Shown piece by piece: positions 3,024 to 63,372 of a DNA stretch of 64,000 nucleotides. The DNA comes from an archaeon. GTDB taxonomy: Archaea; SpSt-1190; DYHY01. The notes under the pieces are model-generated. The model worked only from the letters and a program-made list of their open reading frames with translations. It did no database searches and was not told the origin of the DNA. Position numbers and translations under genes: made by a program. Position 1 is the stretch's first letter. Each line of letters opens with the position of its first letter. The stretch lies in NCBI GenBank assembly GCA_043803745.1, contig JAZDJS010000049.1, positions 13,920 to 77,919 of the forward strand, in the 5' to 3' direction.

Positions 3024-4223
3024 ATGGCAACTGACTATATTTCAAAAATCGAGGGGCATGGGCGGATTGAGGTCGACTTTCTCAAGGGAAAAGCAGAACT
3101 GCACATAGAGGAAGGGGAGCGGCTTTTCGAGGGGATTGTCGTTGGCCGCAGGTATGAGGACGTCCATTTCATTACTCCGCGGATATGCGGGGTCTGCCCG
3201 ACAGCCCATAACCTGGCGACAATACGGGCTATTGAAGATGCGTTCAAAATCAGGGCAACTCCGACAGCGGTCGCGCTCAGGAAGGCGATGCTTTCCGCGC
3301 AGATTGTCCAGAGCCACACGCTGCACCTCTTTTTCCTTGCCCTGCCCGACTTCCTCGGGGTTGATTCCGGGGCGGACCTGATGAAGAAGAATCCGAAGCT
3401 GCTTAAGAAAATCCTCGCAGTCAAGAAAATGTGCGACGCGGTTCTTCGGGGAATCGGGGGGCGGGAGGTCCATCCGACCACGACCATTGTCGGCGGCTTC
3501 ACCCAGTTTCCGGAGTTCCACCGGGCTGAAGAGCTAATAGACCTTGCGCGGGAAACCATACCTATTGCTGAAGAGCTGATGGAGGTCGCCAAAAAGGCAA
3601 TCGGAGATTTCGCGCCGGTCCACAGGAAAACTACCTACCTCGCCCTTGAGGATTATTACGGCGATTCCTTCGTCGAGACGAGCGAGCGAGCCCGCTTCGA
3701 CCCGAAGAAATACCAAGAAAACATTTCCGAAACTGTCAAGCTTTACTCAAGCGCCAAGTTCGGAACCCATAAGGGGCGCGGTTTCCTCGTTGGCGCGCTT
3801 GCGAGGAGAATCCTCGCCGGGAAGATGCAGCCGACAACAAGCATTTTTGACAACAACATTGCCCAGGGAGAGGAGATTTTCGAGTTCACTGAAGAGATTG
3901 AAAAGCAGCTTGCCCTTGCAGTCTCGACAGGCCTCCGGAAGGATGACTGGTCCGTTCCTGTCGAGCCGAGGGAGAGCTTTGGGGTGGGGGCTGTCGAAGC
4001 GCCGAGGGGAACGCTCTATAACAAGCTCTGGTTTGATTCGGGCGGGATATGCACAAAGGCTGACATCGTCACCCCGACCGCGCAGAACCTGACAAACATC
4101 GAGGATGATGCAAACGCGCTCCTTGAGCAGAACCGGGGGAGGAAGACTGAAGCCGACTTAAAGAGGCTTTTGGAAATGCTTGTTAGGGCATATGACCCGT
4201 GCATCACCTGCTCGGTGCACTAG
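3024..4223 (+). CDS. hydA: NiFe hydrogenase large (alpha) subunit, group 3b
   Basis: KIEGHG, L1 motif RICGVCP, EAPRG, and L2 motif DPCITCSVH at the very C-terminus. Confidence 0.93.
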   Translation: MATDYISKIEGHGRIEVDFLKGKAELHIEEGERLFEGIVVGRRYEDVHFITPRICGVCPTAHNLATIRAIEDAFKIRATPTAVALRKAMLSAQIVQSHTLHLFFLALPDFLGVDSGADLMKKNPKLLKKILAVKKMCDAVLRGIGGREVHPTTTIVGGFTQFPEFHRAEELIDLARETIPIAEELMEVAKKAIGDFAPVHRKTTYLALEDYYGDSFVETSERARFDPKKYQENISETVKLYSSAKFGTHKGRGFLVGALARRILAGKMQPTTSIFDNNIAQGEEIFEFTEEIEKQLALAVSTGLRKDDWSVPVEPRESFGVGAVEAPRGTLYNKLWFDSGGICTKADIVTPTAQNLTNIEDDANALLEQNRGRKTEADLKRLLEMLVRAYDPCITCSVH

Positions 4224-4738
4224 CTCCGGGCAAGGATTTCATTCATCTTCTGAAAGAATGCTTCCTCGCCCTTCCGCCAGTACTCGACAATCGGGATTTC
4301 AAGCACGTTTTCCTTTAGAACGAGTTCGAGCTCTTGGAAAAATATGCCTTTGGCAGCCACCCTTTTTGGAGAGCCCGCCTCCATAATGTGCGTGAAGTTT
4401 ATCCCGCAAGACGGACTTCCTTTGATTCCAACGAACGCGAGAACGTTCTGGCCGTCGGAAAGATAGTTTTTAGCGATTGCAACTTGCTCTTCTGCAATTC
4501 TTCGGCAAAGCTGTCTGAACTCGGTAGTGAAAAGCTCCGGGAAAATTAGGCAGTCCCGATTCAACCCCTCAAAAACGTATTCCTGACAGGGCATCTGAAT
4601 TATTCCTATTTCTTTCGTCTGGAGCCAGTCGACAACGCTGTGGACGATTGAAGGATGAATCACCTCGCCGCCTTTGCATCTTGAGTTCGTGTTGAGGATG
4701 CAGTGGGAGACAAAAACCACTTTTCTGCTCTGCTCCAT
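4220..4738 (-). CDS. DUF523/TudS-related (thiouracil desulfidase-like) Fe-S protein
   Basis: SHCILNTNS, IIQMPC.E and GIKGSPSCG motifs; start taken at ATG 4738 (MEQSRKVVF). Confidence 0.75.
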   Translation of the reverse strand: MEQSRKVVFVSHCILNTNSRCKGGEVIHPSIVHSVVDWLQTKEIGIIQMPCQEYVFEGLNRDCLIFPELFTTEFRQLCRRIAEEQVAIAKNYLSDGQNVLAFVGIKGSPSCGINFTHIMEAGSPKRVAAKGIFFQELELVLKENVLEIPIVEYWRKGEEAFFQKMNEILARS

Positions 4739-7556: not shown

Positions 7557-9185
7557 TTATTCCAGGGCAATCTCAAACCCGACCGAAGGCTGGTCAATCC
7601 CGTGGTTCTCAAGAACCTGCGGATGGAGTTCCCCAATGTGGCCCAGAACCGCCCCTTCGGAGGAAATCTCCGCCTGCCTCCCCGGAAGGAACGTCGCCTT
7701 CTCCGAGGGCGAGAAGGAAACCTGGGAAATTCCAAGCTGCTTCAGGAGGCGCTCAATTTGCCCCTTGACAGTCTCAAAAGTCCCGCCGGAAAAGATTGCT
7801 GCAAGCCGCCGCTCGGTCCGGCAATTGACGTCTATCTCAGAGTCAAGGACAACGACGTCGCCAGCTTCGAAAATCGCCTGGGGATATTGGTTGTGCTTGT
7901 TAAGCTCAAGTATTGCGACAAGCGAGGGCAGGAGCTCGTCTCTGAGAAGCGTGAATTCCTCGGTTTTCGGGTTCGAGACCTGCGCAACCGGGCGCTCCGG
8001 CTCGTTCATTTTCCCAAAAAGCTTCTGTGCGCTTGTCATTGCAAAGGTATAGACCTCCTGATAGCCTAGGCCAATCATTGCGTCCTTTGCCTTGTTGCTC
8101 CGCGCAATTACCGGATGCTCGCGCCCGATCGAGGGGAGGGCGGGGATTTCCGGATCGAAGCTCGGATAGCCCAAACCTATCGCAACATCCTCGACAAGGT
8201 CGAACTGATGGAGAATGTCCGTGCGATATGCGGGGACCGAGACTTCCAGCGTGTCCGAATCAATTTCCCCGACTCCGAACCTCATGCGCTCAAGAGCGCC
8301 GGCAATTTCGTCGGCGGGAAGCTCAGCTCCAAGAAGCTTCCTCGCATAGGAAAGGGAAAACTTCATTTTCTCGGGGGAAAGGAACGGCGTCACATCATCC
8401 CCAGAATGGACAAGCTCTATCTGCGCGCCGCGCTCGGCAAGCCCGGTTGCGATTATCGTGCAGGCTTTCTGGACCGCATCCTCGTCAGTTCCGGTAACGT
8501 CAATCAGGAGGTTCCTCGTTGCCGGAGTCACGCGCGTAGCCCTGCTGTTTATTATCGGGGGCATTGAAAGGACCTGCCCGGATGAGTCGACAATCAGGGG
8601 GTAGAGCTTCTTCCCCTCGAGGAGGTGCGCGTATTCCTGTCCCTTCGGATGCCTTTCGAGGATTTTCCGGCAGGTGAGGGAGAATTCCATCTCAAGGGGA
8701 ATGAAGGAAACGCTGTCAGGTTCGACCGCTGTGTAGGTTATCGGGAACTTGATTTTGTCGAAATCATGTATGCCGATCGCAACCTTCCGCCTTTTCCGCC
8801 CGTGCGTCTGGTGGAGCTTTTCCTGGATTTGCATTATCGAGGCAACGGTCTGGTCGTCCATCGCAACTCCGCGGACAATTGCAAAGGAAACGAAGGGCCT
8901 TACATCGCGCACGAGCGGGTCTATCTTCGCCGAATTTCCGGCGGGAATCGGGGAGTAGAGCCGCAGCCCCCGCTCAATTCCGAGGATTCCCTTGAGGGCG
9001 CGCGCAGCGCCTTCAATCATCAGTAGGTCAGGCCTGTTCGGGAAAACCTCTATTTTGAGCAAGTCCCCCTCCGGAGCTTCGGGCGGGCAGCCATACATTG
9101 CGAAAAAGTCCAGGAGCTCGCCCTTGGAAATCTCCGGGTTCCCCATGAGCCGCATGAGGTCGAAAAGGGAGAACTCAGTTATCAT
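7557..9185 (-). CDS. pheT: Phenylalanyl-tRNA synthetase beta subunit (archaeal type)
   Basis: PNRPDLL, QEKLHQTHGRKRRKVAIGIHD, PAYRTDILHQFDLVEDVAI and GELHP motifs. Confidence 0.96.
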   Translation of the reverse strand: MITEFSLFDLMRLMGNPEISKGELLDFFAMYGCPPEAPEGDLLKIEVFPNRPDLLMIEGAARALKGILGIERGLRLYSPIPAGNSAKIDPLVRDVRPFVSFAIVRGVAMDDQTVASIMQIQEKLHQTHGRKRRKVAIGIHDFDKIKFPITYTAVEPDSVSFIPLEMEFSLTCRKILERHPKGQEYAHLLEGKKLYPLIVDSSGQVLSMPPIINSRATRVTPATRNLLIDVTGTDEDAVQKACTIIATGLAERGAQIELVHSGDDVTPFLSPEKMKFSLSYARKLLGAELPADEIAGALERMRFGVGEIDSDTLEVSVPAYRTDILHQFDLVEDVAIGLGYPSFDPEIPALPSIGREHPVIARSNKAKDAMIGLGYQEVYTFAMTSAQKLFGKMNEPERPVAQVSNPKTEEFTLLRDELLPSLVAILELNKHNQYPQAIFEAGDVVVLDSEIDVNCRTERRLAAIFSGGTFETVKGQIERLLKQLGISQVSFSPSEKATFLPGRQAEISSEGAVLGHIGELHPQVLENHGIDQPSVGFEIALE

Positions 9186-15025: not shown

Positions 15026-15098
15026 GGGTCCGTGGTCTAGTGGTTATGACGGCGCTCTCACACAGCGCAGGCCGCCGGTTCAATTCCGGCCGGGCCCA
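15026..15098 (+). tRNA. tRNA-Val(CAC)
   Basis: GGGTCCG/CGGGCCC acceptor stem, anticodon arm GCGCT-CTCACAC-AGCGC, T-loop TTCAATT. Confidence 0.96.
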
Positions 15099-15186
15099 CT
15101 TGAACTCAACTTACCGCTTCGCGGATTTATCTTTGAGTTCAAGGACTTTCGCCTTCGCCCTTTTGGGGCTCGGCTCCAGCCACCAT
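15099..15186 (+). repeat. 88-nt hairpin element shared with tRNA-Val(TAC)
   Basis: Matches the reverse complement of 55196-55283 with 1 mismatch; stem CTTGAACTCAA/TTGAGTTCAAG, tail GACTTTCGC...GCTCGG. Confidence 0.92.
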
Positions 15187-17905: not shown

Positions 17906-17983
17906 AGCGGGGTAGAGTAGCCTGGAGTGCTCGTCGGGCTCATAACCCGAAGATCGGACGTTCAAATCGTTCCCCCGCTACCA
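17906..17983 (+). tRNA. Initiator tRNA-Met(CAT), CCA encoded
   Basis: A1-U72 pair (AGCGGGG/CCCCGCT); three consecutive G-C pairs in the anticodon stem TCGGG-CTCATAA-CCCGA. Confidence 0.96.
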
Positions 17984-19535: not shown

Positions 19536-19819
19536 CTCAGCTTCACGCCTTGGGCGAGGATCTTCCGTATTCCTTCGGGGTCGTATGTCCAGATGACAGT
19601 TCCGTCCTTGTCTATCAGTATCTTACCAGAAGACTCCAGGTAATCTAGTATCACCTGAAAAACCTGATACATCATCTTCTTGGGAAGCCTCTTCCACAGC
19701 TGGTATTTGCCGTATTCCTGGCTATATTTCTGTATTGTTCTCTCCACCATTATCACAGATTCAAGGGTCGGATTGTAGGCAAGCTGGACTTGCATTTGCT
19801 TCGTTGTCGTCTTAATCAC
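19532..19819 (-). CDS. Putative antitoxin (winged-helix-like)
   Basis: PTLESVIMVE...LWKRLPKKMMYQ...ILDYLESSGKI; overlaps the toxin start by 4 nt. Confidence 0.6.
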   Translation of the reverse strand: MIKTTTKQMQVQLAYNPTLESVIMVERTIQKYSQEYGKYQLWKRLPKKMMYQVFQVILDYLESSGKILIDKDGTVIWTYDPEGIRKILAQGVKLR

Positions 19820-20058
19820 CTATATTGGTACATATAATATATTCATTTATATAGCTTTGGGCTGCGAACAAATATTGGCCGTTTAATAATACTTAAAGAT
19901 AAGTTAAAGATTCTTCAAAGCTCAGAGAAAAGGTCCTTTCTATGACCCTTCCGTCGGTGCCCACAATTTCAAACTAGCGCGTTTCTATCTTAGCTGTCTT
20001 TGTAGTGGGGAACCGACATGGAAAAACTTAAAAAGGCGGTAGGCACTACATAAGTAAC

Positions 20059-36335: not shown

Positions 36336-37538
36336 TCAACGGCTCACCAGCACGCTTATTGTTTTCGTAAGCGGTTTGTTCGAGCCTCCCGGCTCAAGGG
36401 TCACGTCAACCTTGTATTTTCCGGGCAGCGCGGGAACTTTGAGCTTGTACTCGATCTGGCCGCTCTGCTGGGTCGTTGTCTCATACCGTACCCCGTCTAT
36501 CACTATGATCACCCGGCCGCCCAAGACGGGGGTGCCGTCCGCGAAGAAGGCGGATCCCTGCAGCGTGTAGAACGCGGCAGGCCTCGTCTGGGTTTCGGAT
36601 TCGTTTATGTCGAGGAGGAGCGCCTGCGGCGGAAGAGCGACCATGAAAATCGCGACCCCGATAAGAAGCATTATCGCGGCGTGCTTTATTCCGGCGACGA
36701 CCCTTCCCTCGCCAAGCTGCCCGGCAAGAAGCCCGTTGAAAACGGCCTGGATTATCACCATTGAGAAGAACATCTTCCGGTAGTAGGACGGCCCGAACTG
36801 GGAGGACGTTCCCCCGCCGCTTCCGAAAAGCCCGCCTCCTCCTGCGGAAAGATTCATCGCGAAAAGGGGTCCCAAAATCTTCTGGAGGACTATGACCATC
36901 CCCAGGAAGATGAAGAAAATCACATACATCACGAGGACCTGCTGAGCCAGCTTGTTCTGCCTATCCGCCTCAAGATCCTTTACGAGCACGGCATTGCTTG
37001 CAACCGAGGACATTGCCTCCGCGATGTCTCCGCCGGATTCGAAGGCTTCCATCACGACGGTAACAGTGTGCTTGATGAAATCGGAGCGGCTCATCCGGTC
37101 CTCGAACATCCGGATTACCTTCGGGAACGGGACGCCCCAGGAAAGCTGGGCGGACATCTTCTGTATTTCCGGAGAGAGGGCGCCATAGTCGACGTCCCTT
37201 GCCTGGAGTATTGCATCGATAAGGGTTATCCCCGATTTCTGGGCTTCCGCAAGGGAACGGAGAAAGTCCGGGAACTTGTCCTCGATTGCCTTTGTCCGCT
37301 TGTAATCATAGTACTGGTAGAAAAGATGCGGCGCCGCGCCGATTCCGAACACGAACGGAAGGTACTGGACCGATGTCGGGACATCGAAGCCGTTGATGTA
37401 AAAGTCGATGAACAGCAGGGCGATTGCAAGGACCCCGGAGAAATACATCACCTTGTGCTTTGTATCGGTTACCCTGCCGAGGACTATTTGGAGGTCGCTT
37501 GGCTTCTTAATTCTCGCTTCGTCTTCGGTTTTTTCCAT
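36336..37538 (-). CDS. Type II/IV secretion F-family (TadC/ArlJ-like) membrane platform with C-terminal Ig-like domain
   Basis: FPDFLRSLAEAQKSG, DYGALSPEI..M...LSWG, ESGGDI and GLLAGQL..G...AGIKH motifs. Confidence 0.9.
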   Translation of the reverse strand: MEKTEDEARIKKPSDLQIVLGRVTDTKHKVMYFSGVLAIALLFIDFYINGFDVPTSVQYLPFVFGIGAAPHLFYQYYDYKRTKAIEDKFPDFLRSLAEAQKSGITLIDAILQARDVDYGALSPEIQKMSAQLSWGVPFPKVIRMFEDRMSRSDFIKHTVTVVMEAFESGGDIAEAMSSVASNAVLVKDLEADRQNKLAQQVLVMYVIFFIFLGMVIVLQKILGPLFAMNLSAGGGGLFGSGGGTSSQFGPSYYRKMFFSMVIIQAVFNGLLAGQLGEGRVVAGIKHAAIMLLIGVAIFMVALPPQALLLDINESETQTRPAAFYTLQGSAFFADGTPVLGGRVIIVIDGVRYETTTQQSGQIEYKLKVPALPGKYKVDVTLEPGGSNKPLTKTISVLVSR

Positions 37539-37562: not shown

Positions 37563-38441
37563 TCAGGTCGGCGAAATCATCGAAATCAGGAGCATGAAAC
37601 CGACCGAGATCATCGGCAGGACCGCGTAAATGACAATGTTCTGTATCATCACCATCGCTGTCCCGGTCGTCCCTATCATGTTCATTATGGTCGACATTAT
37701 TATGAAGAAGATGCTTCCGACAATAACCGCCGTTATGTAAAGCTCCGTGAAAAGCGAGAGCTCCTCGACGTAGTTGTCGATGTTCCGCCGGTAGTTCTGC
37801 ATGTAGCCCTTGCCCTTCTCAATCAGGAACGAACGCAAATCCCCCCCGGTCACCAGGGTCGACCTCATCCCCCAGAGGAGCCCCTTCAGCTCCTCGGACG
37901 GGGTCCGGTCGGCTGCCCGTGAAAGGGCTGTTGCGATGTCGGTGCCGAAAAGCTCGGTGTCGGCAATTATCCCCCGGGCCTCCCTCGAGATTTCCCCGTA
38001 TTCCGGGAAGTCGGCAAGTATCTTGAAGATCGCGTCCGTCGTCATCCCGGTTCCCGCGAGGGTCGAAAGGTAGATTGTCGCGAAGGGAAGGGCGTTCTCG
38101 ATCGATTTCTTCATCGATTCGGCCTTGATCGTCGGATAGAAGTACAGCAGGGAAAGGATCAGCGCGGCGGTCGTTACGCCGACCAGGAAGGTGACGCCGA
38201 CGGTCGTGGAAATCGGAAGCCCGAGCGCAATGCAGAGAACGAAGGCCATCGGGGCTGTCATGAGCGGGGTCAGCACCCCTGTTAGGAGGCCGGATGAAAC
38301 GAACTCGTCAACTGACATCCGTATCCCCGCCTTGCGCAAGTCCTCCTTGAGCGGCGCGAAAATTACCGAGTTTGAATCGACGAACCCGCCGAAAACGGCA
38401 AGGGACATCTTAGTGTATGGGTCTACGTCCGCTATTGCCAT
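37563..38441 (-). CDS. Type II/IV secretion F-family (TadB/C-like) protein
   Basis: LPFATIYLSTLAG.G, YGEISRE, RTPSEEL and TGGDL motifs. Confidence 0.9.
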   Translation of the reverse strand: MAIADVDPYTKMSLAVFGGFVDSNSVIFAPLKEDLRKAGIRMSVDEFVSSGLLTGVLTPLMTAPMAFVLCIALGLPISTTVGVTFLVGVTTAALILSLLYFYPTIKAESMKKSIENALPFATIYLSTLAGTGMTTDAIFKILADFPEYGEISREARGIIADTELFGTDIATALSRAADRTPSEELKGLLWGMRSTLVTGGDLRSFLIEKGKGYMQNYRRNIDNYVEELSLFTELYITAVIVGSIFFIIMSTIMNMIGTTGTAMVMIQNIVIYAVLPMISVGFMLLISMISPT

Positions 38442-38444
38442 GAA

Positions 38445-40343
38445 CTACTTCTTTTCCGCCCCCGGGACAATCTTTCCTGGCACCGGCTCATGGAGCTCCC
38501 TTGAAACCATCTGCATCATTTCAGCCGGATTCGTGTAATACTTTGCAACATAGCTTGCGAACAGGCGGTAATCCTTGACGTGCTTCAGTTTCAGCCATTC
38601 GAGAAGCTTTGCGCGCCGCGCGATTTCCGAAAGGATGCTTGCCTCGGTAATCCCCCTGAAATGGGCGAGCTTCTCAAGGATTATGCTCGGATCCTTCGGG
38701 ACGATCTTGTCCTCGATTGCGTTCCACTCGAAAACTGTGTTGCTTTTCAGGGTTCCGTCCTTCAGCATGACCTTCCTGATCTCGACAATCTGGCTCGCCC
38801 TGCGGACATACTGCCCCTTCAGTTTCGTCCGCACTATGAATATTATCGCATCGAGGTTCTCGAGCATTGCCGGTGAAAGCGAAATCGGCGGGGTTACGAG
38901 GCGGTCGACCACCTTCTGCACGTTGTCGGCGTGGAGCGTCCCGAGGGCGGGGTGCCCGGTTGCCATTCCCTGGAACATTACGTTGGCTTCCGCGCCCCTG
39001 ACTTCCCCGACGATTATGTAGTCCGGTCTCTGACGGAGCGACGCCTTCAGGAGGTCGAACATCTCAACGGAGCCATATCTTTTCTCGCTTGAGACTGCCC
39101 GGGCGACCTGGGGAATCCAGTTCGGGTGAGGCAACTGGAGTTCGGCAGTGTCCTCGATTGAAACTATCTTCTTCGTCGGCTGGATGAAAAGTGAAATCGC
39201 GTTGAGCGCGGTGGTCTTCCCCGTTGCGGTCGCCCCGGAAACCAGGATTGACTTGCCCTGTTCGATAAGGAACCAGATGTACGCAAGAGCGAGAGTCGAA
39301 AGGGTCCCCATTTCAATAAGGTCGACCGGCGTGAAGGGCCTCTCGGAGAATTTCCGTATCGTGAAATTGCTTCCCCTGCGCGCGATGTCCGAGCCAAGGG
39401 TTGCCTGGAGACGGCTTCCGTCGGGGAGGGTTGCGTCGAGAAGCGGGGTTGCGACCGAAATCGCCCTGCGGCACCTCTGCGCAAGCTTGACGGCGAACGA
39501 GTCGAGCTCGGCTTTCGTCTTGAACGTGATGTTTGTCCGCATTTCCCCGTATTCCGGGTTCCGGTGGACGATGTATGCGGGGATGCCCACCCCGTCACAG
39601 GAAATGTCCTCGATTTGCGGGTCGTGCATCAGCGGCTCTATCTCGTTGAGCCCGACGAAATCCCTGAATAGGTAATATTCGAACCGCGCCCTCTGCTCCT
39701 CGCTAAGCTTGATGTTGAAAAGCTCGACAATCCTGTAGAAATTCTCCTTGAGATATGCGAACTGGCTTGTCTGGGAGACTGCGGCGAAGTCGATGTCAAG
39801 CTTCTCCTCGAGTTTCTTCTCTATTTTCCTGAGGAGCTCATTCTCCTCGGGGCTTATCTGGGGCTCGATCACCTGATAGATGAGGCACTGCTCCTCGGGG
39901 CTCCAGAAAATCTGGACGTATGAGAAAACCTGACCTGTCTCGGATGCGATGAGCGGATAGGATTCCCTTATGTTCGCCTTGCTTTTCTCCTTCCATTCCG
40001 CGGAAACGGGGGCGCTTGTTTCCCCGGCAAGCCCCTCGTGAAGCAGGAATCCCTTGAATTTCGAATCCTCGTCTTCGTCCTCATCCTTCTTCTCCCGTTC
40101 GAATCCGTCAATGTGAAGCGTCTGGGAGAATGGATATGCCTGCTGCGGCGAGGTGACGTTCACGTTTATCCTCTGGCCGGAAGCGGCGCCGGCCGCAAGA
40201 AACCGCCTTGCAAGGACGCGGTTCCGCATTTTGGAAATCGCGCCTCTCACAATTGCCGAAGAGGTTATCGATCCGGGGCGGGCCGGCTGCCTGAGGAGGC
40301 GCTTTCTCATTAGTTTCTTTTTGTTTATTGGCATTGGGATCAT
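38445..40343 (-). CDS. Type II/IV secretion/pilus assembly ATPase (VirB11/ArlI/TadA family)
   Basis: IEDISCDG, Walker A GATATGKTT, SIEDTAEL, LRQRPDYIIVGEVRG and TGH...TLHA motifs. Confidence 0.95.
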   Translation of the reverse strand: MIPMPINKKKLMRKRLLRQPARPGSITSSAIVRGAISKMRNRVLARRFLAAGAASGQRINVNVTSPQQAYPFSQTLHIDGFEREKKDEDEDEDSKFKGFLLHEGLAGETSAPVSAEWKEKSKANIRESYPLIASETGQVFSYVQIFWSPEEQCLIYQVIEPQISPEENELLRKIEKKLEEKLDIDFAAVSQTSQFAYLKENFYRIVELFNIKLSEEQRARFEYYLFRDFVGLNEIEPLMHDPQIEDISCDGVGIPAYIVHRNPEYGEMRTNITFKTKAELDSFAVKLAQRCRRAISVATPLLDATLPDGSRLQATLGSDIARRGSNFTIRKFSERPFTPVDLIEMGTLSTLALAYIWFLIEQGKSILVSGATATGKTTALNAISLFIQPTKKIVSIEDTAELQLPHPNWIPQVARAVSSEKRYGSVEMFDLLKASLRQRPDYIIVGEVRGAEANVMFQGMATGHPALGTLHADNVQKVVDRLVTPPISLSPAMLENLDAIIFIVRTKLKGQYVRRASQIVEIRKVMLKDGTLKSNTVFEWNAIEDKIVPKDPSIILEKLAHFRGITEASILSEIARRAKLLEWLKLKHVKDYRLFASYVAKYYTNPAEMMQMVSRELHEPVPGKIVPGAEKK

Positions 40344-40352
40344 TCCTTGTTC

Positions 40353-41060
40353 TTATCCTACCGAGAGCGCAAGATTCATCCTGTCATTGCTATTATATGT
40401 TACTGCCGCAAGTTCCGCCGAGGAGCCGAATATTTCCCCTAGGACGCTGCGGGAAAGCTTCACCGGGTAATATGCAACCTTCCCGCCCGCGAAAGCCCTT
40501 ACGCAGGAAGGAGGGTCGTTCCCGATCCGGCAGGACGAGTCGTTGGCCTTTGAGAAGGAAATCTCATATGACGCTCCCGAAAGCTCCCTCGGGAAGCGCA
40601 GGAAAAGGGTGAAGTTGGATTCAGGATTCCGGTCTGCGAGGATGTCCGCCTGGGCAAGGGCAAACGCAAGGTCGCTTGCAGCGGCGGAAAGGCTGTTCTT
40701 TATTTCCGAATCCTTGATTCCCTCGGAGATTTTCCCGAACATCATTGCGACAAGCGTGAGAATCATGAAAGCCGAGAGGGAGAGGAGGGAGAATTCGATA
40801 ATTTCCTTTTGTGCGCGGCGAGCCTGCCGGCATATTTGCGCACAAAAGACTTCGCTCCGCTCAGCCTTCTGAGCCCGCCGATACCCGAATCCTATTGGGC
40901 TCAGAAACTTCCGCTTCGCTGCAGCTTTTTGGACTCTGCCCAAAAAACCTCGCTGATGCTCGGCCTTCTGGCGTTTCAGTCCAGGAAATTCCGCCAGATT
41001 TCTCCAGTGCTGAAGCACGGACCCTCTAAGGAGGGGCTGAAGCTCAACCTTCTTTCTCAT
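40353..41060 (-). CDS. Pilin-like protein whose leader is extended by four in-frame insertions
   Basis: RRA|QKEIIEFSLL plus a hydrophobic helix; upstream leader repeats RRAQK, RVQK and KRQK. Confidence 0.75.
   Translation of the reverse strand: MRKKVELQPLLRGSVLQHWRNLAEFPGLKRQKAEHQRGFLGRVQKAAAKRKFLSPIGFGYRRAQKAERSEVFCAQICRQARRAQKEIIEFSLLSLSAFMILTLVAMMFGKISEGIKDSEIKNSLSAAASDLAFALAQADILADRNPESNFTLFLRFPRELSGASYEISFSKANDSSCRIGNDPPSCVRAFAGGKVAYYPVKLSRSVLGEIFGSSAELAAVTYNSNDRMNLALSVG
40805..41047 (+). repeat. Four stacked fold-back insertion units (60, 60, 39 and 84 nt)
   Basis: Each starts C(C/T)TT(T/C)TG, folds onto its own antisense copy, and ends GCTCAG, GCTGCAG, GCTCGG or GCTCAA. Confidence 0.9.
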
Positions 41061-41181
41061 TCTGGCTGTGTAACGTAACTCAGTGAATATAAACCTTTTT
41101 GGGGCCCTTCGGAATTTAGATTGCTGTTGTTGTTGCGGATTGAATCCTCAGTCTTTCCGGGTGGGGGCGGGAAATTTGGGA

Positions 41182-41943
41182 TTAGTTTGTATCAACTGAG
41201 CCCCTGTCGGGGACGGCCTTAGCGGCAGCTGCTTTTTTGGACTCCGCTTCGGCGCGCGCCTCAGGGTCCCCGTATGCAGCGGCAAGGCGGCTGCTCAGTT
41301 CAGTCTTTTTCTCATATGTCATCCTGAAAACCTCATCCGCAAGCCCCAGGAGGCCGGCGTAGATTGTCACGCGGTCAGTCTCGGAAATTCCCGTGGGAAC
41401 ATCGGCGCGCACGCTAAGATTCCCGTTCAGAAGGCATACTGTATAGGGATTCAGGGAATTTTCGCCATATGCGAATTGGCCGACAACCAGAGACAGACTT
41501 GGAGCGGGTTTGTCATAATTAGACTCAGACCTAGTTATTGACCTAGTTATTGCAGTTATTAGTATTCCTGCCTTTACGTCTGCAAGAGCAAGTCCGCCTG
41601 AAACATATTCGCCGCCCTTGAAAAACGCTGAGGGAAGTCCTCCAAGAACTCTGTTTTTGGCAAGCTCTTCGAACGCTTCGTAAATCGCTTGATATTGCAG
41701 GGTTTCCCCAGACACGTCCGGGTAAAAAGGCGTTTCCATGCGGAATGGGTCAATATTGACCGTGATTTCGTGTTTCGTTACAGCAAGCTCAGAATCATCG
41801 TCATCATACCTGAACGTTACGGTATGCTGCGGCGAGCCCTTGCTTACGCCATCCATTATCCCTGGAAGTGCTGCAGCAGTGCTCCTTATGCCATATGCCG
41901 TTCTCTCGTCTTGGTCGATTGCAACGCTTGTCAGCTTTATCAT
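41182..41943 (-). CDS. Hypothetical protein (possible paralog family with 44200-46428)
   Basis: 253-aa ORF with an AT-rich promoter at about 41965-41978. Confidence 0.65.
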   Translation of the reverse strand: MIKLTSVAIDQDERTAYGIRSTAAALPGIMDGVSKGSPQHTVTFRYDDDDSELAVTKHEITVNIDPFRMETPFYPDVSGETLQYQAIYEAFEELAKNRVLGGLPSAFFKGGEYVSGGLALADVKAGILITAITRSITRSESNYDKPAPSLSLVVGQFAYGENSLNPYTVCLLNGNLSVRADVPTGISETDRVTIYAGLLGLADEVFRMTYEKKTELSSRLAAAYGDPEARAEAESKKAAAAKAVPDRGSVDTN

Positions 41944-42011: not shown

Positions 42012-42932
42012 CTATTTCATCATAATCGAAATAGTTACTGTCCTTACCTTCCTTCCGGCAACAATCGAGAGCGTCGAACCCTCGTTCTTCAGTATTACCG
42101 AGAAGGTGCCCCTTGTTGTTACGCTCGTTCCCTCGGCGGGAACCGCCTTAATCACGAGCTGCTCGCTCCCGACCGGGTCGAAAATGTTCCTTGGCTTGAG
42201 CTTGAGGCGCGTCCTGAAAAGCTTGCCAATCGGTTCGGACTGGGCAAGGACTGCTCCGGGCTTGTCTTTTCCTAGGAGCCCCGTTCCGGTCTCGTATTTC
42301 TCGGAAACAACGCTTGCGTAATTGTTCGCATAGTCCGCGGCATCGAGGCGGAACTCGGTCCCCTCGACATTCGGGAAGAATGTCCCGACAATCGAATATG
42401 ACTGGCCAGTCCCAGGGAACTTTATTGAATTGTCCGGGCAGAGGCAGACTTCCTTCCCGTATATTTCGGGGGGCAGGTCAGTTGCGGAAGTGAAAGTCCC
42501 GTTCTTGCTGCAGGCAGTGTAGATTCCGCTTGCGCAGGTTCCGCTGGAAATCGGCTCGGCAAGGAGCCAGGCCTCCTTCTGGATGTACGGGGAAATCGAA
42601 TCGTCGATCGTCGTCTCCCTCGGGGCGAAGAAGCGCATTTCAGTCGAGAGCGTGTAAGTAAGGACGTAGTTGTCGGTCTGGTCGGGCTCTATCTTCATTT
42701 CGCCCTTGTCAACCTGGACCGTTGTCGCTGACTGACCGCCCTCCCGGGCAACCCGCGCGAAATCGTTCGAAATCCGCCCGAAGGTCTGCTTCACATATTC
42801 TATCCTGTTGGCATCCCCGCTCTTTGAAATGAGGGGCATTCCCCATGTATATGCGGCTGCTATCGAGCCGAGAACTATTGCAACGAGGACAACTGTCCCG
42901 ACGATTTCAGATTGGGAAGGTCTTTTAGCCAT
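42012..42932 (-). CDS. Pilin-like protein with class III signal peptide
   Basis: KRPS|QSEIVGTVVLVAIVLG..AAYTWGMPLI. Confidence 0.8.
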   Translation of the reverse strand: MAKRPSQSEIVGTVVLVAIVLGSIAAAYTWGMPLISKSGDANRIEYVKQTFGRISNDFARVAREGGQSATTVQVDKGEMKIEPDQTDNYVLTYTLSTEMRFFAPRETTIDDSISPYIQKEAWLLAEPISSGTCASGIYTACSKNGTFTSATDLPPEIYGKEVCLCPDNSIKFPGTGQSYSIVGTFFPNVEGTEFRLDAADYANNYASVVSEKYETGTGLLGKDKPGAVLAQSEPIGKLFRTRLKLKPRNIFDPVGSEQLVIKAVPAEGTSVTTRGTFSVILKNEGSTLSIVAGRKVRTVTISIMMK

Positions 42933-52822: not shown

Positions 52823-53170
52823 ATGGATTCCGTCGAGAAGATTTACAGCACGCTCATGAAGGACACCCTTGAGATGGTCTGCCGGATGGCCGGACCCTCC
52901 CTCGCATTCCACGCCGTTGCGTCAGCCCAGGAAAAGTTCTCGGAAAAGCTGAAGGGACTCGTTTACACGCGCTATGACATGTCGATTGAGCTCAAGGATT
53001 CGGGCAAGAACGAAAAAGCCCAGCTCCTTTCCCAGATTTTCCAGGAGATAATAAACTATGCGCGCGAGGTAATAGGGGACAACATTTACATTTACGCCGA
53101 GAAGGGGATTGACGGCGTGAGGGGCGATGCTGAGAAGGAAAAGGTTGCCCTGCCCAAAATAGCGTCATAG
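52823..53170 (+). CDS. Small soluble helical protein (output-domain-like)
   Basis: Two related helix-G-helix motifs (CRMAGPSLA, REVIGDNIY); resembles the C-terminus of 56731..57813. Confidence 0.6.
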   Translation: MDSVEKIYSTLMKDTLEMVCRMAGPSLAFHAVASAQEKFSEKLKGLVYTRYDMSIELKDSGKNEKAQLLSQIFQEIINYAREVIGDNIYIYAEKGIDGVRGDAEKEKVALPKIAS

Positions 53171-53351
53171 ATTTTTCTGCTATTTTGGACTTTGCTACAC
53201 TCAGCCGAAGATTGCCTCCTAAGCGAACTTTCTGCACTCTTCGACTTTGCTCCGCTCAGCCCAAAATAGCGTCTTAGAAGTTTTAGGCTATTTTGGACTT
53301 TTGCCCATGCTCGGCCGAAGATTGCGTCTTGAACGTAATTTGCAATCTTCG
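53153..53351 (+). repeat. Four stacked fold-back units, each starting with a recoded PKIAS* gene end
   Basis: Units start at 53153, 53205, 53260 and 53315; tails ACTTTGCTACACTCAG, ACTTTGCTCCGCTCAG and ACTTTTGCCCATGCTCGG. Confidence 0.92.
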
Positions 53352-53471
53352 ATGCTGTTCCAACCCGACCTGAAATGGCCTTCCGAGCGCCTTTCTTTTG
53401 GAAAATTTTCCCTGTCCGAATAGGGGAAACCCAGTAAAAAAGTTTATTAGTGTGTTACGCTGTATTACTCT

Positions 53472-53695
53472 CGGCCACTGACACACACCAGCAAACCGAA
53501 AAGGAACCCGAAAGGGAAGCTGGAAAAAAGCCCTACGAAACGAGGGCGACAAGAACTTCAGTATGGCTTTCGCTCCCCGCCACAGAACCTCCGGTTCACA
53601 CGTGGCTAAAGGGAGTCCAAAAGCAAACAGTTGGGGAGGTGGCCGGGCGTCCCGGAACGGGCGAATTAACTACCCGGAGGGACGCCTCCCAGATT
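53472..53695 (+). ncRNA. Candidate structured non-coding RNA of unknown family
   Basis: AAAAAGTTTATTA promoter at about 53437-53449; CCAGC..CCC-GAAA-GGG..GCTGG junction; GGCGTCCC/GGGACGCC stem; no convincing ORF. Confidence 0.4.
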
Positions 53696-53702
53696 TCTAC
53701 CT

Positions 53703-54893
53703 TCACTCGGAAGGCTCGAAATAGGGAACTGGAAGTCTTGAGGCATCTTCTCTCGCGTCACTCTTGCTCGTAACTGGAAGGAAGGCCTGCGCAAGGGAGT
53801 TTCTCGAAATCCTTGCGGTCAGATTTCCCGGAGTTGAGAGGTATGCGTCCTTGGTGGTCTGCTCGAAAGCTTCGTAAACGTGCGTCCGCATAAGGGAAAC
53901 CAAATTCCCTGTCCGGAGAAAGTCAAAGTAAATTTCTAGATTCGCCTCAGCGTCTGCGAGCGCCTCGCTGCCGTCAGCGCCCCATCTTGAAAGTAAGTCT
54001 GTTGTCTCTGAAATTGCTCTAACTTCGTCAAGAAAGAGCGTACGGAAATCGAATGGAAAGTGTCTCCAGTAATCAAGATGGTCGCCTTCATGCAAAAGGG
54101 TCTCTGCAATTCGGGGGCTCGTTCTTCCTTTGCGGTCGCAGCCGAAAAGAATTGCGTTCGGGGAAGGATAGTCCCTGTGATAAGGAGCTGAGCAATTCAC
54201 GCCCTTTGAAAGGAAAATATAAGAAATTCCGTGAAGCTTTGTACGCTGGCGCTCGGACAGGAACGGGTAAGCTTCTTCAAAGGCGATAGCAATCTCACTC
54301 GTTCCTCTTTCAGCAAGCCACTCACTTAGCTCATCGGAAACCGGAACGTATTTCCAGGGGACCCGTTTGTCCGAGACTGTTGCAAAAGTTTCCTTGGGTC
54401 CCGTCTTTTTGGACAGCATTAAATCAGCATAATCTTTCGGAAGGCGCAAGATTTCAGTCATTCCGTCGCCAACAAGACTCAACTCGACTGGCGGAGCAGA
54501 TTCAGTTAGCCCAAGGTTTCCTGAAAGATCATCTAAAAGCGCCGCCTCAAAGACGGGACGTATAAGGAGCCTATCTGCAAGCTCCGTCTTCATTACGATT
54601 TGAGGTAACTCGTTTTCCGAAAATCCGTATTTCGGGCCCCAGATTGAAAGTCCGTCTCGAACCTGTTCAATCAAACTTTCAGCTGAACCGGTTGCCGAAC
54701 CCCAGAGGCGGACGTCTTCGAGCTTTTTCGTCAAATAACTAGAAGGTCCCGAAACTTCCCTTGAAATTTCCGTCAAAAGCGCTCGTTCGGCAAGGGTGTA
54801 TTCCACCAATCTGTCAACTAGGGGGGGTCTTGGAGGACACTTCAAAGTTGCTTCCGGAACGTTTACTGTTGCTCCTGAAGTTGTTCCAAGCAT
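53703..54893 (-). CDS. Hypothetical protein with HExxH zincin motif
   Basis: ETLLHEGDH followed by a downstream E (DEVRA); GGAGG upstream of the start. Confidence 0.6.
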   Translation of the reverse strand: MLGTTSGATVNVPEATLKCPPRPPLVDRLVEYTLAERALLTEISREVSGPSSYLTKKLEDVRLWGSATGSAESLIEQVRDGLSIWGPKYGFSENELPQIVMKTELADRLLIRPVFEAALLDDLSGNLGLTESAPPVELSLVGDGMTEILRLPKDYADLMLSKKTGPKETFATVSDKRVPWKYVPVSDELSEWLAERGTSEIAIAFEEAYPFLSERQRTKLHGISYIFLSKGVNCSAPYHRDYPSPNAILFGCDRKGRTSPRIAETLLHEGDHLDYWRHFPFDFRTLFLDEVRAISETTDLLSRWGADGSEALADAEANLEIYFDFLRTGNLVSLMRTHVYEAFEQTTKDAYLSTPGNLTARISRNSLAQAFLPVTSKSDAREDASRLPVPYFEPSE

Positions 54894-55025: not shown

Positions 55026-55283
55026 GCGAGGCCGTCCGGCTGAGGCACGGATTTCGTTAATGCTCAAGAACCTGCTTGAAGACTACGCGCGTTCTTTACG
55101 CCCGTCAACGGATTTTTCTTTCAAGAAAACTGGGTTGTAGTGGGCCCGGCCGGCTGAGGCGTAGCAACCGAAGTCGGAGGGAACAGGCCGGAATGATGGT
55201 GGCTGGAGCCGAGCCCCAAAAGGGCGAAGGCGAAAGTCCTTGAACTCAAAGACAAATCCGCGAAGCGGTAAGTTGAGTTCAAG
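55026..55283 (-). repeat. Stacked units downstream of tRNA-Val(TAC), including the shared 88-nt element
   Basis: 88-nt element at 55196-55283; GCCTCAG|CCGGCCGGGCCCACT (tRNA 3' copy at 55139-55153); GCCTCAG|CCGGACGG at about 55032-55046. Confidence 0.85.
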
Positions 55284-55356
55284 TGGGCCCGGCCGGAATT
55301 GAACCGGCGGCCTGCGCAGTGTAAGTGCGCCGTCATAACCACTAGACCACGGACCC
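55284..55356 (-). tRNA. tRNA-Val(TAC)
   Basis: Same body as tRNA-Val(CAC); anticodon arm GCGCA-CTTACAC-TGCGC. Confidence 0.96.
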
Positions 55357-61969: not shown

Positions 61970-63372
61970 AGTTCCCCGGTTGCTTGCCTTTGCCTGAGCG
62001 TTTCCATCAGCCCTTCCGGGTCGGTTCCGAGCCTTCTGGCAAGGGCCATTCCGTAGCCGCCCTGGGAAATCCCCTCAAGTATCCTGTATTTGTTGGAGGG
62101 GTCGTCGTAATCGGCAACCCTCCTGAACGCAACACAGGGCGTTCCTTGGAATTCTCTCACAAGGCCGACATCGTGGGTGACAACAAATGAATTGAAACCG
62201 GCCGCCTGTGCAAATTTTATCAAACCTTCGGAGAGTGCTCGTTCAACCTCGGGCTCCGTCCCGCTTGACGGCTCGTCAATAAGAAGGAGGTCGTAGAGGT
62301 TTGCGTCCCTGTTCATCCTGGCAACATATGCCTGACCAGTCTCAAGATGTCCCTTTCCAGCAGAATCCCCGAAATCGAAGCAGGGCCACAGCCGTCTTAC
62401 CGGGGAAAACTCGATTTCGTCGGCAAGTGCATAGAAGCCATTCATCGGCAGGAGGATGTTGATCCCTATTGTTCGCAGATAGACGCTTTTCCCCATTGAA
62501 TTGGAGCCGGTAATCATTGTCGTCCTTTTTTCAGGTCCCCATCCGGCATCGTTCGGGACCGGTCTTATTCTGGCGGTCCTGCTCCTGCTGTAATCGCATT
62601 TTTCATATGCCCGGTGCACTGCGTTCCCGATTCGTCCCCTCCGCTCCTCCGGGTCGAGGAATTTCGGCCTGGCGCCGTCTTCGCAAATGTATGCAAGGGC
62701 GAGGTAACCGGCGAGCTGCTCTTTCAGGACCCGACCGTATTCCGCGAACTCCGGGAAATGTTCGAGGAGGCTTGCTGCAGCTGCGAGGTTTTCCTCGTCA
62801 ATCTCAAATAGCCTTCTCGGGCGCCCAGTGTCCCGCGCCCTCAGTTCAACAACCCCCCTCGGAGGATATTCTTCCCTGACCTTCCTGGTCGCCTCCAAAA
62901 AATCCGGCGACTGGAAAAGCACTTGCCTGGCGTATTTTTTCAGGTCGTGCGCAACCGAGGAACGGGAATCCAGATTCTCGATTTCAGCCAAGACGAGGGG
63001 AAAATTGGCAAGCCGTTCAGCGGCAAGGGCGCGGGCCTTTTCAACCTCGCCGTTTTCGCGCCAGCGAGAAGAGTAGATTTTGGAATCGGGAATTGCTCTG
63101 GCGAGCCCCTGCACCTTCCTCAGGAAATCCGGCGCGTCCATCAGCTCTGAAAAGAACTGCAGCCGATAGTCCCGGGTAGCCTCGTCTATCGGGGTTTCAA
63201 GAATCCTTCTGACCCTGCCGAAAGTGGCGCTTCCGCCGAACCCGGGCGTGTTCGCAACAATAAAATCCAGGTTGGTTACTTTCAGGGCTTCGAGCTCCTG
63301 CTCAGAATAAGTTAGAGGTGTTCTTCCGGGAATCTTCAAGATGTCGAGTTTTTCCGGAGGACGCGGTTTCAT
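61966..63372 (-). CDS. MutS-related ATPase (domain V, lacking mismatch-binding domains)
   Basis: VPND, ITGSNSMGKSVYLRTI, LLIDEPSSGT, VVTHD and GYG.ALA..LG motifs. Confidence 0.8.
   Translation of the reverse strand: MKPRPPEKLDILKIPGRTPLTYSEQELEALKVTNLDFIVANTPGFGGSATFGRVRRILETPIDEATRDYRLQFFSELMDAPDFLRKVQGLARAIPDSKIYSSRWRENGEVEKARALAAERLANFPLVLAEIENLDSRSSVAHDLKKYARQVLFQSPDFLEATRKVREEYPPRGVVELRARDTGRPRRLFEIDEENLAAAASLLEHFPEFAEYGRVLKEQLAGYLALAYICEDGARPKFLDPEERRGRIGNAVHRAYEKCDYSRSRTARIRPVPNDAGWGPEKRTTMITGSNSMGKSVYLRTIGINILLPMNGFYALADEIEFSPVRRLWPCFDFGDSAGKGHLETGQAYVARMNRDANLYDLLLIDEPSSGTEPEVERALSEGLIKFAQAAGFNSFVVTHDVGLVREFQGTPCVAFRRVADYDDPSNKYRILEGISQGGYGMALARRLGTDPEGLMETLRQRQATGEL

Follow-up and report, generated by a model that had tools for sequence, protein, structure and literature searches.

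A type IV pilin-like gene at 40353..41060 on the (-) strand of the window (the whole stretch of 64,000 nucleotides that was analysed) contains four consecutive in-frame fold-back units in the region encoding its leader, and units of the same hairpin-and-tail build are found in non-coding DNA of the same genome (G000). The best reading, which is assigned a probability of about 0.58, is that the units accumulated at the codons of an A/G-Q-K cleavage motif, are translated and are then removed by prepilin peptidase.

The pilin-like gene and its genomic context

The product of 235 residues consists of an 85-residue leader, a hydrophobic helix and a β-rich domain. Within the ORF the units are followed by R-R-A-Q-K-E-I-I-E-F and the helix. 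The R-R-A-Q-K codons (40806..40820, (-)), which hold a putative prepilin-peptidase site between A and Q, lie directly before the segment encoding the mature protein's N-terminal hydrophobic helix (EIIEFSLLSLSAFMILTLVAMMFG; 40734..40805, (-)), which is helical in an AF2 model. A basic leader (22 Lys and Arg versus five Asp and Glu), a [KR]-[GA] pair followed by Gln or a small residue, and a hydrophobic helix of ∼20 residues, the features by which such pilins are recognized, are all present (RRA-QKEIIEFSLLSLSAFMILTLVAMMFG). The RRAQ sequence aligns with RGQ in the homologue from genome G002, which starts MRGQAIILEH. The R-R-A-Q site and this MRGQ start fit the EppA-type R-G-Q site, given as RGQI with Gln at position +1 in the available part of a published account (PMC4187195). 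As judged from the site and its neighbourhood, prepilin peptidase probably removes the 85-residue leader between A and Q. Such a leader exceeds the short leader, often of 6–12 residues, by which archaeal type IV pilins are recognized; 6–12 residues is also the usual archaeal length in the same part of that account (PMC4187195).

The genomic context is that of a pilus system, with an ATPase and FlaJ-type membrane proteins nearby and a prepilin peptidase in the genome. A T2SSE ATPase (38445..40343; E = 7.9e-37) and FlaJ/UpsF-like membrane proteins (37563..38441 and 36336..37538) belong to a pilus-like operon, a pilin with a TIGR02537 N-terminal domain and the short leader MAKRPSQ-SEIVG is encoded at 42012..42932, and a Peptidase_A24 gene (PF01478, 38.4 bits) is located on contig C31. 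In G000 the two pilin-like genes are separated by an ORF of 253 residues without a family match (41182..41943, (-)), which contains a 12-nt tandem repeat at 41528-41552; the same two genes are adjacent, 4–60 nt apart, in genomes G001, G003 and G002 and at the metagenome locus L020.

The protein matches DUF7266 weakly, with 13.9–14.9 bits against a cut-off of 27.6, and five of six homologues match this family at E ≤ 0.1 (best E = 9e-06); no NCBIfam match was found for the ORF. In the AF2 model, which is based on seven sequences and has a mean pLDDT of 64.8, residues 1–66 have pLDDT values below 50 and are followed by a helix at 67–144 and seven strands. A Foldseek search of the PDB with this model gave no matches at E ≤ 0.001, the best being weak Ig-like ones.

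The four fold-back units

The initial annotation described the stretch at 40805-41047 as a series of frame-preserving fold-backs, and this observation is confirmed. Stems of 11, 10, 7 and 7 bp, each 100% complementary, lie at the positions that it gave; the unit lengths of 60, 60, 39 and 84 nt add up to 243 nt, or 81 codons, and leave the pilin frame without a stop; and both the unit ends (GCTCAG, GCTGCAG, GCTCGG and GCTCAA) and the encoded peptide repeats (RRAQK, RRAQK, RVQK and KRQK) read as it had stated.

A related tail follows each of the four fold-backs on the (+) strand. Unit 1 (40805..40864, (+)) consists of an 11-bp hairpin (40806-16/40838-48) with a 21-nt loop and the consensus 16-nt tail, and encodes AERSEVFCAQICRQARRAQK; its outer arm corresponds to the codons of R-A-Q-K. 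Unit 2 (40865..40924, (+)), encoding AAAKRKFLSPIGFGYRRAQK, has a 10-bp hairpin (40867-76/40897-906), a 20-nt loop and an 18-nt tail, with a fold energy of −20.2 kcal/mol (RNAfold). A 7-bp hairpin (40926-32/40940-46) is combined with a 17-nt TGATG-type tail in unit 3 (40925..40963, (+)), which encodes AEHQRGFLGRVQK, and another (40967-73/40992-98) with a long tail containing two small internal hairpins in unit 4 (40964..41047, (+)), the other strand of which encodes VELQ...KRQK.

In 2000 dinucleotide shuffles of 40805-41047, perfect hairpins (stem of at least 7, loop of 4–25) numbered 0.41 on average; at least four were reached in 0.1% of the shuffles, and a summed stem length of at least 35 bp, which is the observed value, in none. 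Within the opening 300 nt of the pilin coding sequence there are five occurrences of the junction motif [AC]A[GA]AA[GA]G, all in codon phase 0 and spaced 84, 39, 60 and 60 nt apart.

The repeat family outside the pilin gene

The proposal that the units are an interspersed DNA element and not a protein domain is borne out by the presence of the same hairpin-and-tail units in non-coding DNA. Units built as CC, stem, loop, stem and tail also occur on contigs C38, C47, C15, C1, C50 and C36; their stems vary between loci and the tail is common to all. Tails in G000 lie behind a protein gene, behind tRNA genes and near promoters. The further suggestion that the element also works antisense to a gene holds as well, the tail strand being antisense to the pilin mRNA and sense after tRNAs and another gene. 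A loose regular expression for the tail gave 75 matches in G000 versus 11 in the shuffled genome. The TGATG-type tail occurs eight times in G000, twice in G001 and in none of 39 other genomes, with no matches for reversed-pattern controls, and the tail repeat is limited to this genus among the 41 genomes searched. A search of G001–G004 for the 16-nt tail with up to two mismatches returned mostly chance matches in coding DNA, at counts close to those of the reversed-pattern control.

A second array, of four units in the order A-B-A-B (52, 55, 55 and 55 nt), is located at 53153..53369 (+), where it begins inside the last codons of the ORF at 52823..53170; it is non-coding, with stops, and is absent from the orthologous site in G001 and G003. 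Its first arm consists of the native codons P-K-I-A, which are kept in the G001 and G003 orthologues, and at every locus with a neighbourhood that allows a judgement the first arm likewise consists of local sequence. The order within a unit is local sequence X, loop, inverted copy X', tail and a renewed copy of X. Direct repeats of at least 8 nt follow 21 of the 75 tail matches; the direct repeats behind tail matches and tRNA genes, which are candidate target-site duplications, vary in length (9–21 nt and more).

A covariance model, R1, was built from seven units that all lie outside the pilin gene, where unit boundaries were the analyst's choice. Its best non-seed match in the window is unit 1, with exactly the boundaries of the initial annotation (40805-40864; 21.5 bits, E = 3.4e-4), which is also its best non-seed match in the genome (E = 0.0064). 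R1 recovers one of the four pilin units, units 2–4 being missed in both the window and the genome searches. Unit 3 has a run of 19 identical tail bases in common with C36:14495-14514; over its last ∼36 nt the unit 4 tail differs at three positions from a long-tail unit on C36 that sits behind a pilin-like gene; and the unit 1 tail differs by one base from the tail at 53244-53259. Because the four pilin tails are of different subtypes, each with a relative elsewhere, their similarities speak for more than one arrival rather than for one unit copied four times.

The tail copy at C36:14495-14514 lies antisense and in frame within the K/R-rich C-terminal region of an ORF, and is a second case of the tail repeat within coding DNA. 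Two paralogous pilin-like genes are present at C36:30700-32800 (about 1–300 and 1129–1930 of the locus), one of which starts MAKSKGQQSRGQ-SSTEYLV ahead of a hydrophobic helix; each gene has an array of units with the tail behind it, and one of these arrays has the long tail of pilin unit 4. The same hairpin arms (CCGATATTCGC-like) are shared by loci on C38 (∼19650-19830), C47 (∼9000-9120), C15 (∼63040-63130) and C1 (∼4170-4270), three of which also share an upstream flank of ∼20 nt after a TATA-like box. These common arms and flanks indicate that whole hairpin-and-tail units have also been copied between promoter-proximal sites.

A structured-RNA reading of the tail was rejected, as it shows no structure above shuffles and belongs to no Rfam family. 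A bulge-helix-bulge intron was rejected as well, its motif being absent from the folds of tail-containing stretches (z = −0.3, −1.3 and +0.7); that the frame is kept through the units also argues against splicing. At the gathering score Rfam matched tRNAs only. The region 40700-41200 gave two chance-level Rfam matches (18 and 14 bits against cut-offs of ∼40) and 53100-53800 gave none at E ≤ 1. The non-coding stretch at ∼53430-53700 (+), which has its own promoter-like box (TTTATTAG) and blocks kept at the same place in G001 and G003, may be an undescribed or divergent RNA gene.

Repeats at tRNA genes

The tRNA genes of the window are located at 15026..15098 (+), 17906..17980 (+) and 55284..55356 (-). 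An 11-bp hairpin with a tail (15099..15179, (+)) lies directly behind the first of these, a tRNA-Val gene, and the same hairpin and tail (55207..55283, (-)) lie directly behind the third, also for tRNA-Val. The first arm behind tRNA-Val resembles the trailer of the G001 orthologue.

In 27 of the 40 tRNA genes of G000 an exact copy of at least 9 nt of the gene's own 3' end is present no more than 220 nt downstream. The controls gave 0/40 for the upstream flank, 0/40 for the 5' end against the downstream flank and 1/40 for the shuffled flank. In G001 such a copy was found for 17 of the 30 distinct tRNAs examined (30 loci out of 44 tRNA matches). The copy usually runs from the 3' strand of the T-stem to the discriminator, with the tail placed just before it. 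The copies are often in tandem, up to three, and the DNA between them comprises only ∼30–200 nt and includes the tail motif. In a second form the tail is reverse-complemented within a pseudo T-loop. The tail is far more frequent at tRNA flanks than in the pilin gene.

A second repeat family is also present behind tRNA genes, at about 55080-55140 (-) in the window and at many tRNA flanks on C19, C21, C30 and C42. It comprises a T-rich hairpin of 9–11 bp, a conserved CCGTTGACGGGCG-like box and a pseudo T-arm that is split after TTC by the reverse complement of the tail.

Leaders of related pilins

Homologues of the pilin were found in four of 41 related genomes, G000 included, in four protein clusters of a large protein collection, self included, and at one metagenome locus (L020); all of the genomes compared are drafts. 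With leader length counted up to E-I-[IV]-E-F, the leader has 85 residues and four units in G000, 74 residues and five units in L020, and 57 residues and four units in G001. It has 31–53 residues in G003, where the start is uncertain, 32 in P0003 and 21 in P0002. Leaders of about five residues, as predicted for the orthologues by the initial annotation, are not what the close orthologues have, their leaders being of 21–74 residues; only the distant homologue in G002, the most distant of all, starts MRGQ, with a leader of 3–4 residues and no units. Since the close orthologues already have long leaders, the extension is by sequence comparison old and dynamic, and not a recent event in G000.

The comparison of unit numbers that had been proposed shows that the unit sets differ among relatives, always in frame. 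Between G001 and L020 the leader contains gaps of 3 and 48 nt, the latter being one whole unit that adjoins the mature part and resembles unit 1 of G000. These two sequences are 83% identical in the leader and 92% in the mature part, where 22 synonymous versus 11 non-synonymous codon changes are found among 151 codons. Between genera the leaders can barely be aligned. The long leader is therefore not a conserved domain, the possibility that would have told against the units as DNA insertions, and is common to the relatives as a feature only.

Probable translation of the leader

The ATG at 41058..41060 (-) is the first start past a promoter-like site, a BRE/TATA-like motif (AAAAAGG TTTATATT; 41086..41100, (-)) located 25 nt before it. 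In G001 and L020 this motif is found 23 nt ahead of the ATG. We take this site to be a promoter from its likeness to the archaeal BRE/TATA consensus, and at what we presume to be the typical spacing its position is compatible with an mRNA that is leaderless or almost so. In each of the four leaders examined the pilin frame lacks stops, and stops interrupt the remaining two sense frames in most of them. Because an open pilin frame has a chance probability of about 0.08 per shuffle for the G000 leader, and of 0.08–0.25 across the leaders, it is only moderately unlikely by chance and is by itself weak evidence for translation.

It is quite improbable that the units form an untranslated 5' region and that the protein starts near the hydrophobic helix. 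A class III leader of 85 residues would indeed lie far outside the usual range of 6–12 residues given in the available part of PMC4187195, and the chance probabilities of an open frame leave room for such a region. However, no in-frame ATG, GTG or TTG is present between the units and the helix in G000, and none there is common to the relatives; in addition, the leader indels measure 3 and 48 nt, and in three genomes it is the far ATG that the promoter-like site immediately precedes. More improbable still is that the units reflect an assembly artefact or chance: although G000 is a draft of 51 contigs, its units have diverged from each other rather than being identical, analogous arrays are present in the independent assemblies of G001 and L020, and the shuffle statistics speak against a chance pattern.

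Origin and maintenance of the units

According to the preferred reading, copies of a short interspersed repeat that is specific to the genus would have extended a class III leader to its 85 residues. Each of them would comprise a local stretch, an inverted copy of it 7–21 nt further on that closes the hairpin, and a conserved tail of 16–18 nt (longer in unit 4), with a renewed copy of the local sequence after every tail. In the pilin gene the local sequence would be the A/G-Q-K cleavage-motif codons, so that every unit would regenerate '...QK' before the next unit or the mature protein. We infer that insertion and/or local duplication would add units, that recombination between the repeated junctions would remove them, and that the survivors in the pilin gene would be only the in-frame, stop-free versions. 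An mRNA starting at or just before the ATG at 41060 would lead to translation of the whole array into a basic, disordered pre-sequence in the cytoplasm, and a cut by the peptidase between A and Q would leave the mature pilin unchanged. Because everything before Gln would be removed, selection would need only an open frame.

The hairpins might instead be kept for a function of their own, structures in the DNA, or within the initial 250 nt of a leaderless pilin mRNA, tuning the expression or timing of pilin synthesis, with unit number as an evolvable dial and the A/G-Q-K repeats as possible decoys for the peptidase. Folding of the leader RNA beyond that of shuffled sequences is found in three of four species (z = −3.3 in G000, −2.2 in L020, −2.4 in G003 and −0.7 in G001), equal lengths of the mature part giving z of about 0. 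In all four leaders one hairpin ends at the cleavage-motif codons, and long leaders are present in every relative of the family except G002. Between G000 and L020, 20 of 22 cells of unit 1 are paired, and two pairs, which lie opposite the third positions of the Ala and Lys codons, have changed on both sides. Such paired changes in the arms could leave room for a function, which the idea in the initial annotation of the leader as a safe site ignores. However, the count of double changes falls short of significance (with two sequences compared, 117 of 500 shuffles give as many), and covariation is equally expected if each insertion copies local sequence. The hairpins are also degraded in G001 and L020 (−6 to −14 kcal/mol versus −20 to −23 in G000), close relatives have different unit sets, and the same units occur where the DNA is plainly non-coding and on either strand with respect to genes, all of which makes maintenance for function unlikely. 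Less likely again is an origin in which the gene's own signal-peptide segment was solely duplicated in tandem and then diverged, with the likeness elsewhere due to copying out of the pilin gene. Units 1 and 2 can be aligned across their full length, the array at 53153-53369 is itself an A-B-A-B duplication and one motif is common to all of the junctions, but the four tails are of different subtypes with closer relatives elsewhere in the genome, and tRNA flanks carry the tail far more often than the pilin gene does.

Profiles for a transposase, an integrase and Cas1 (PF01797, PF00589 and PF01867) had no matches in G000, a draft of 51 contigs that is 90% complete. Origins from IS200/IS605 or RAYT elements, a tyrosine recombinase or a casposon were rejected, as searches of the 90%-complete genome gave no member of these three enzyme families, and mobility is consequently deduced from the distribution of the units alone. 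To our knowledge, no transposition chemistry accounts for an inverted copy of local sequence. It is a tentative proposal, and a doubtful one, that the units are undescribed mobile or self-propagating DNA in which a hairpin is made from an inverted copy of a target of ∼10 nt beside the conserved tail and the target is duplicated. Such DNA would prefer the tRNA stretch from T-stem to discriminator and the ends of pilin genes, and would spread without a known transposase, integrase or Cas1, the pilin leader being one intragenic site.

Comparison with known systems

Should translation and removal of the leader be borne out, no class III signal peptide described so far would come close to it in length. 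A cleaved pilin pre-sequence would then be a tolerated intragenic landing place for repeats, as well as a natural test of how much extra leader length prepilin peptidases accept. Of greater interest may be the repeat family itself, in which a conserved tail, a locally made hairpin and a duplicated target are combined. Two thirds of the tRNA genes are marked by it in a small archaeal genome in which the usual mobilizing enzymes were not found, and the way in which the repeat spreads could reveal a new insertion mechanism. No described element that fits the hairpin-and-tail repeat was found in a literature search, although one may still be in print.

The nearest known behaviour is that of the Rickettsia palindromic elements (RPE) and other intragenic MITE-like repeats, which in the available part of a published account are in-frame palindromes in protein genes whose added peptide is tolerated (PMC10969869). 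The likeness to RPE, to the extent that this part describes them, lies in short palindromic repeats placed in frame inside coding genes, and the pilin units are likewise in-frame, stop-free copies inside an ORF. RPE form families of ∼150 bp with a conserved sequence and peptide, whereas only a tail of 16–20 nt is conserved in the pilin-leader repeat; its arms are locus-specific copies of neighbouring sequence, and its units, of 39–84 nt, are stacked four in a row in an archaeal signal peptide.

REP and REPIN sequences, which are mobilized by RAYT, and MITEs resemble the present repeat in being small, multi-copy and mostly extragenic hairpin repeats that are often in tandem. The arms of REP and MITE elements are the same in all copies, whereas here they vary by locus, and no match to a Y1 transposase was obtained. 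The terminal inverted repeats with one common sequence that are expected of a MITE are not present, the arms at 40806-16, at 53154-63, on C38, on C50 and behind tRNA-Val differing from each other, and a cognate transposase, expected of MITE and REP elements alike, is not seen among matches to PF01797, PF00589 and PF01867, of which there are none in the 90%-complete genome.

Integrative elements leave attL/attR duplications in archaeal tRNA genes, and these share with the present repeats a direct copy of the 3' part of the tRNA downstream of an intact tRNA gene. Here, in contrast, only ∼30–200 nt lie between the copies, a tail motif is present, 27 of 40 tRNAs are affected and no tyrosine recombinase was found.

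Leaders of bacterial type IVb pilins reach about 15–30 residues. With the class III signal peptides of archaeal pilins the present leader has in common its basic character, a small residue at −1, Gln at +1 and the hydrophobic helix, but it differs in having 85 residues instead of 6–12 and in carrying a cleavage-like motif that is repeated five times.
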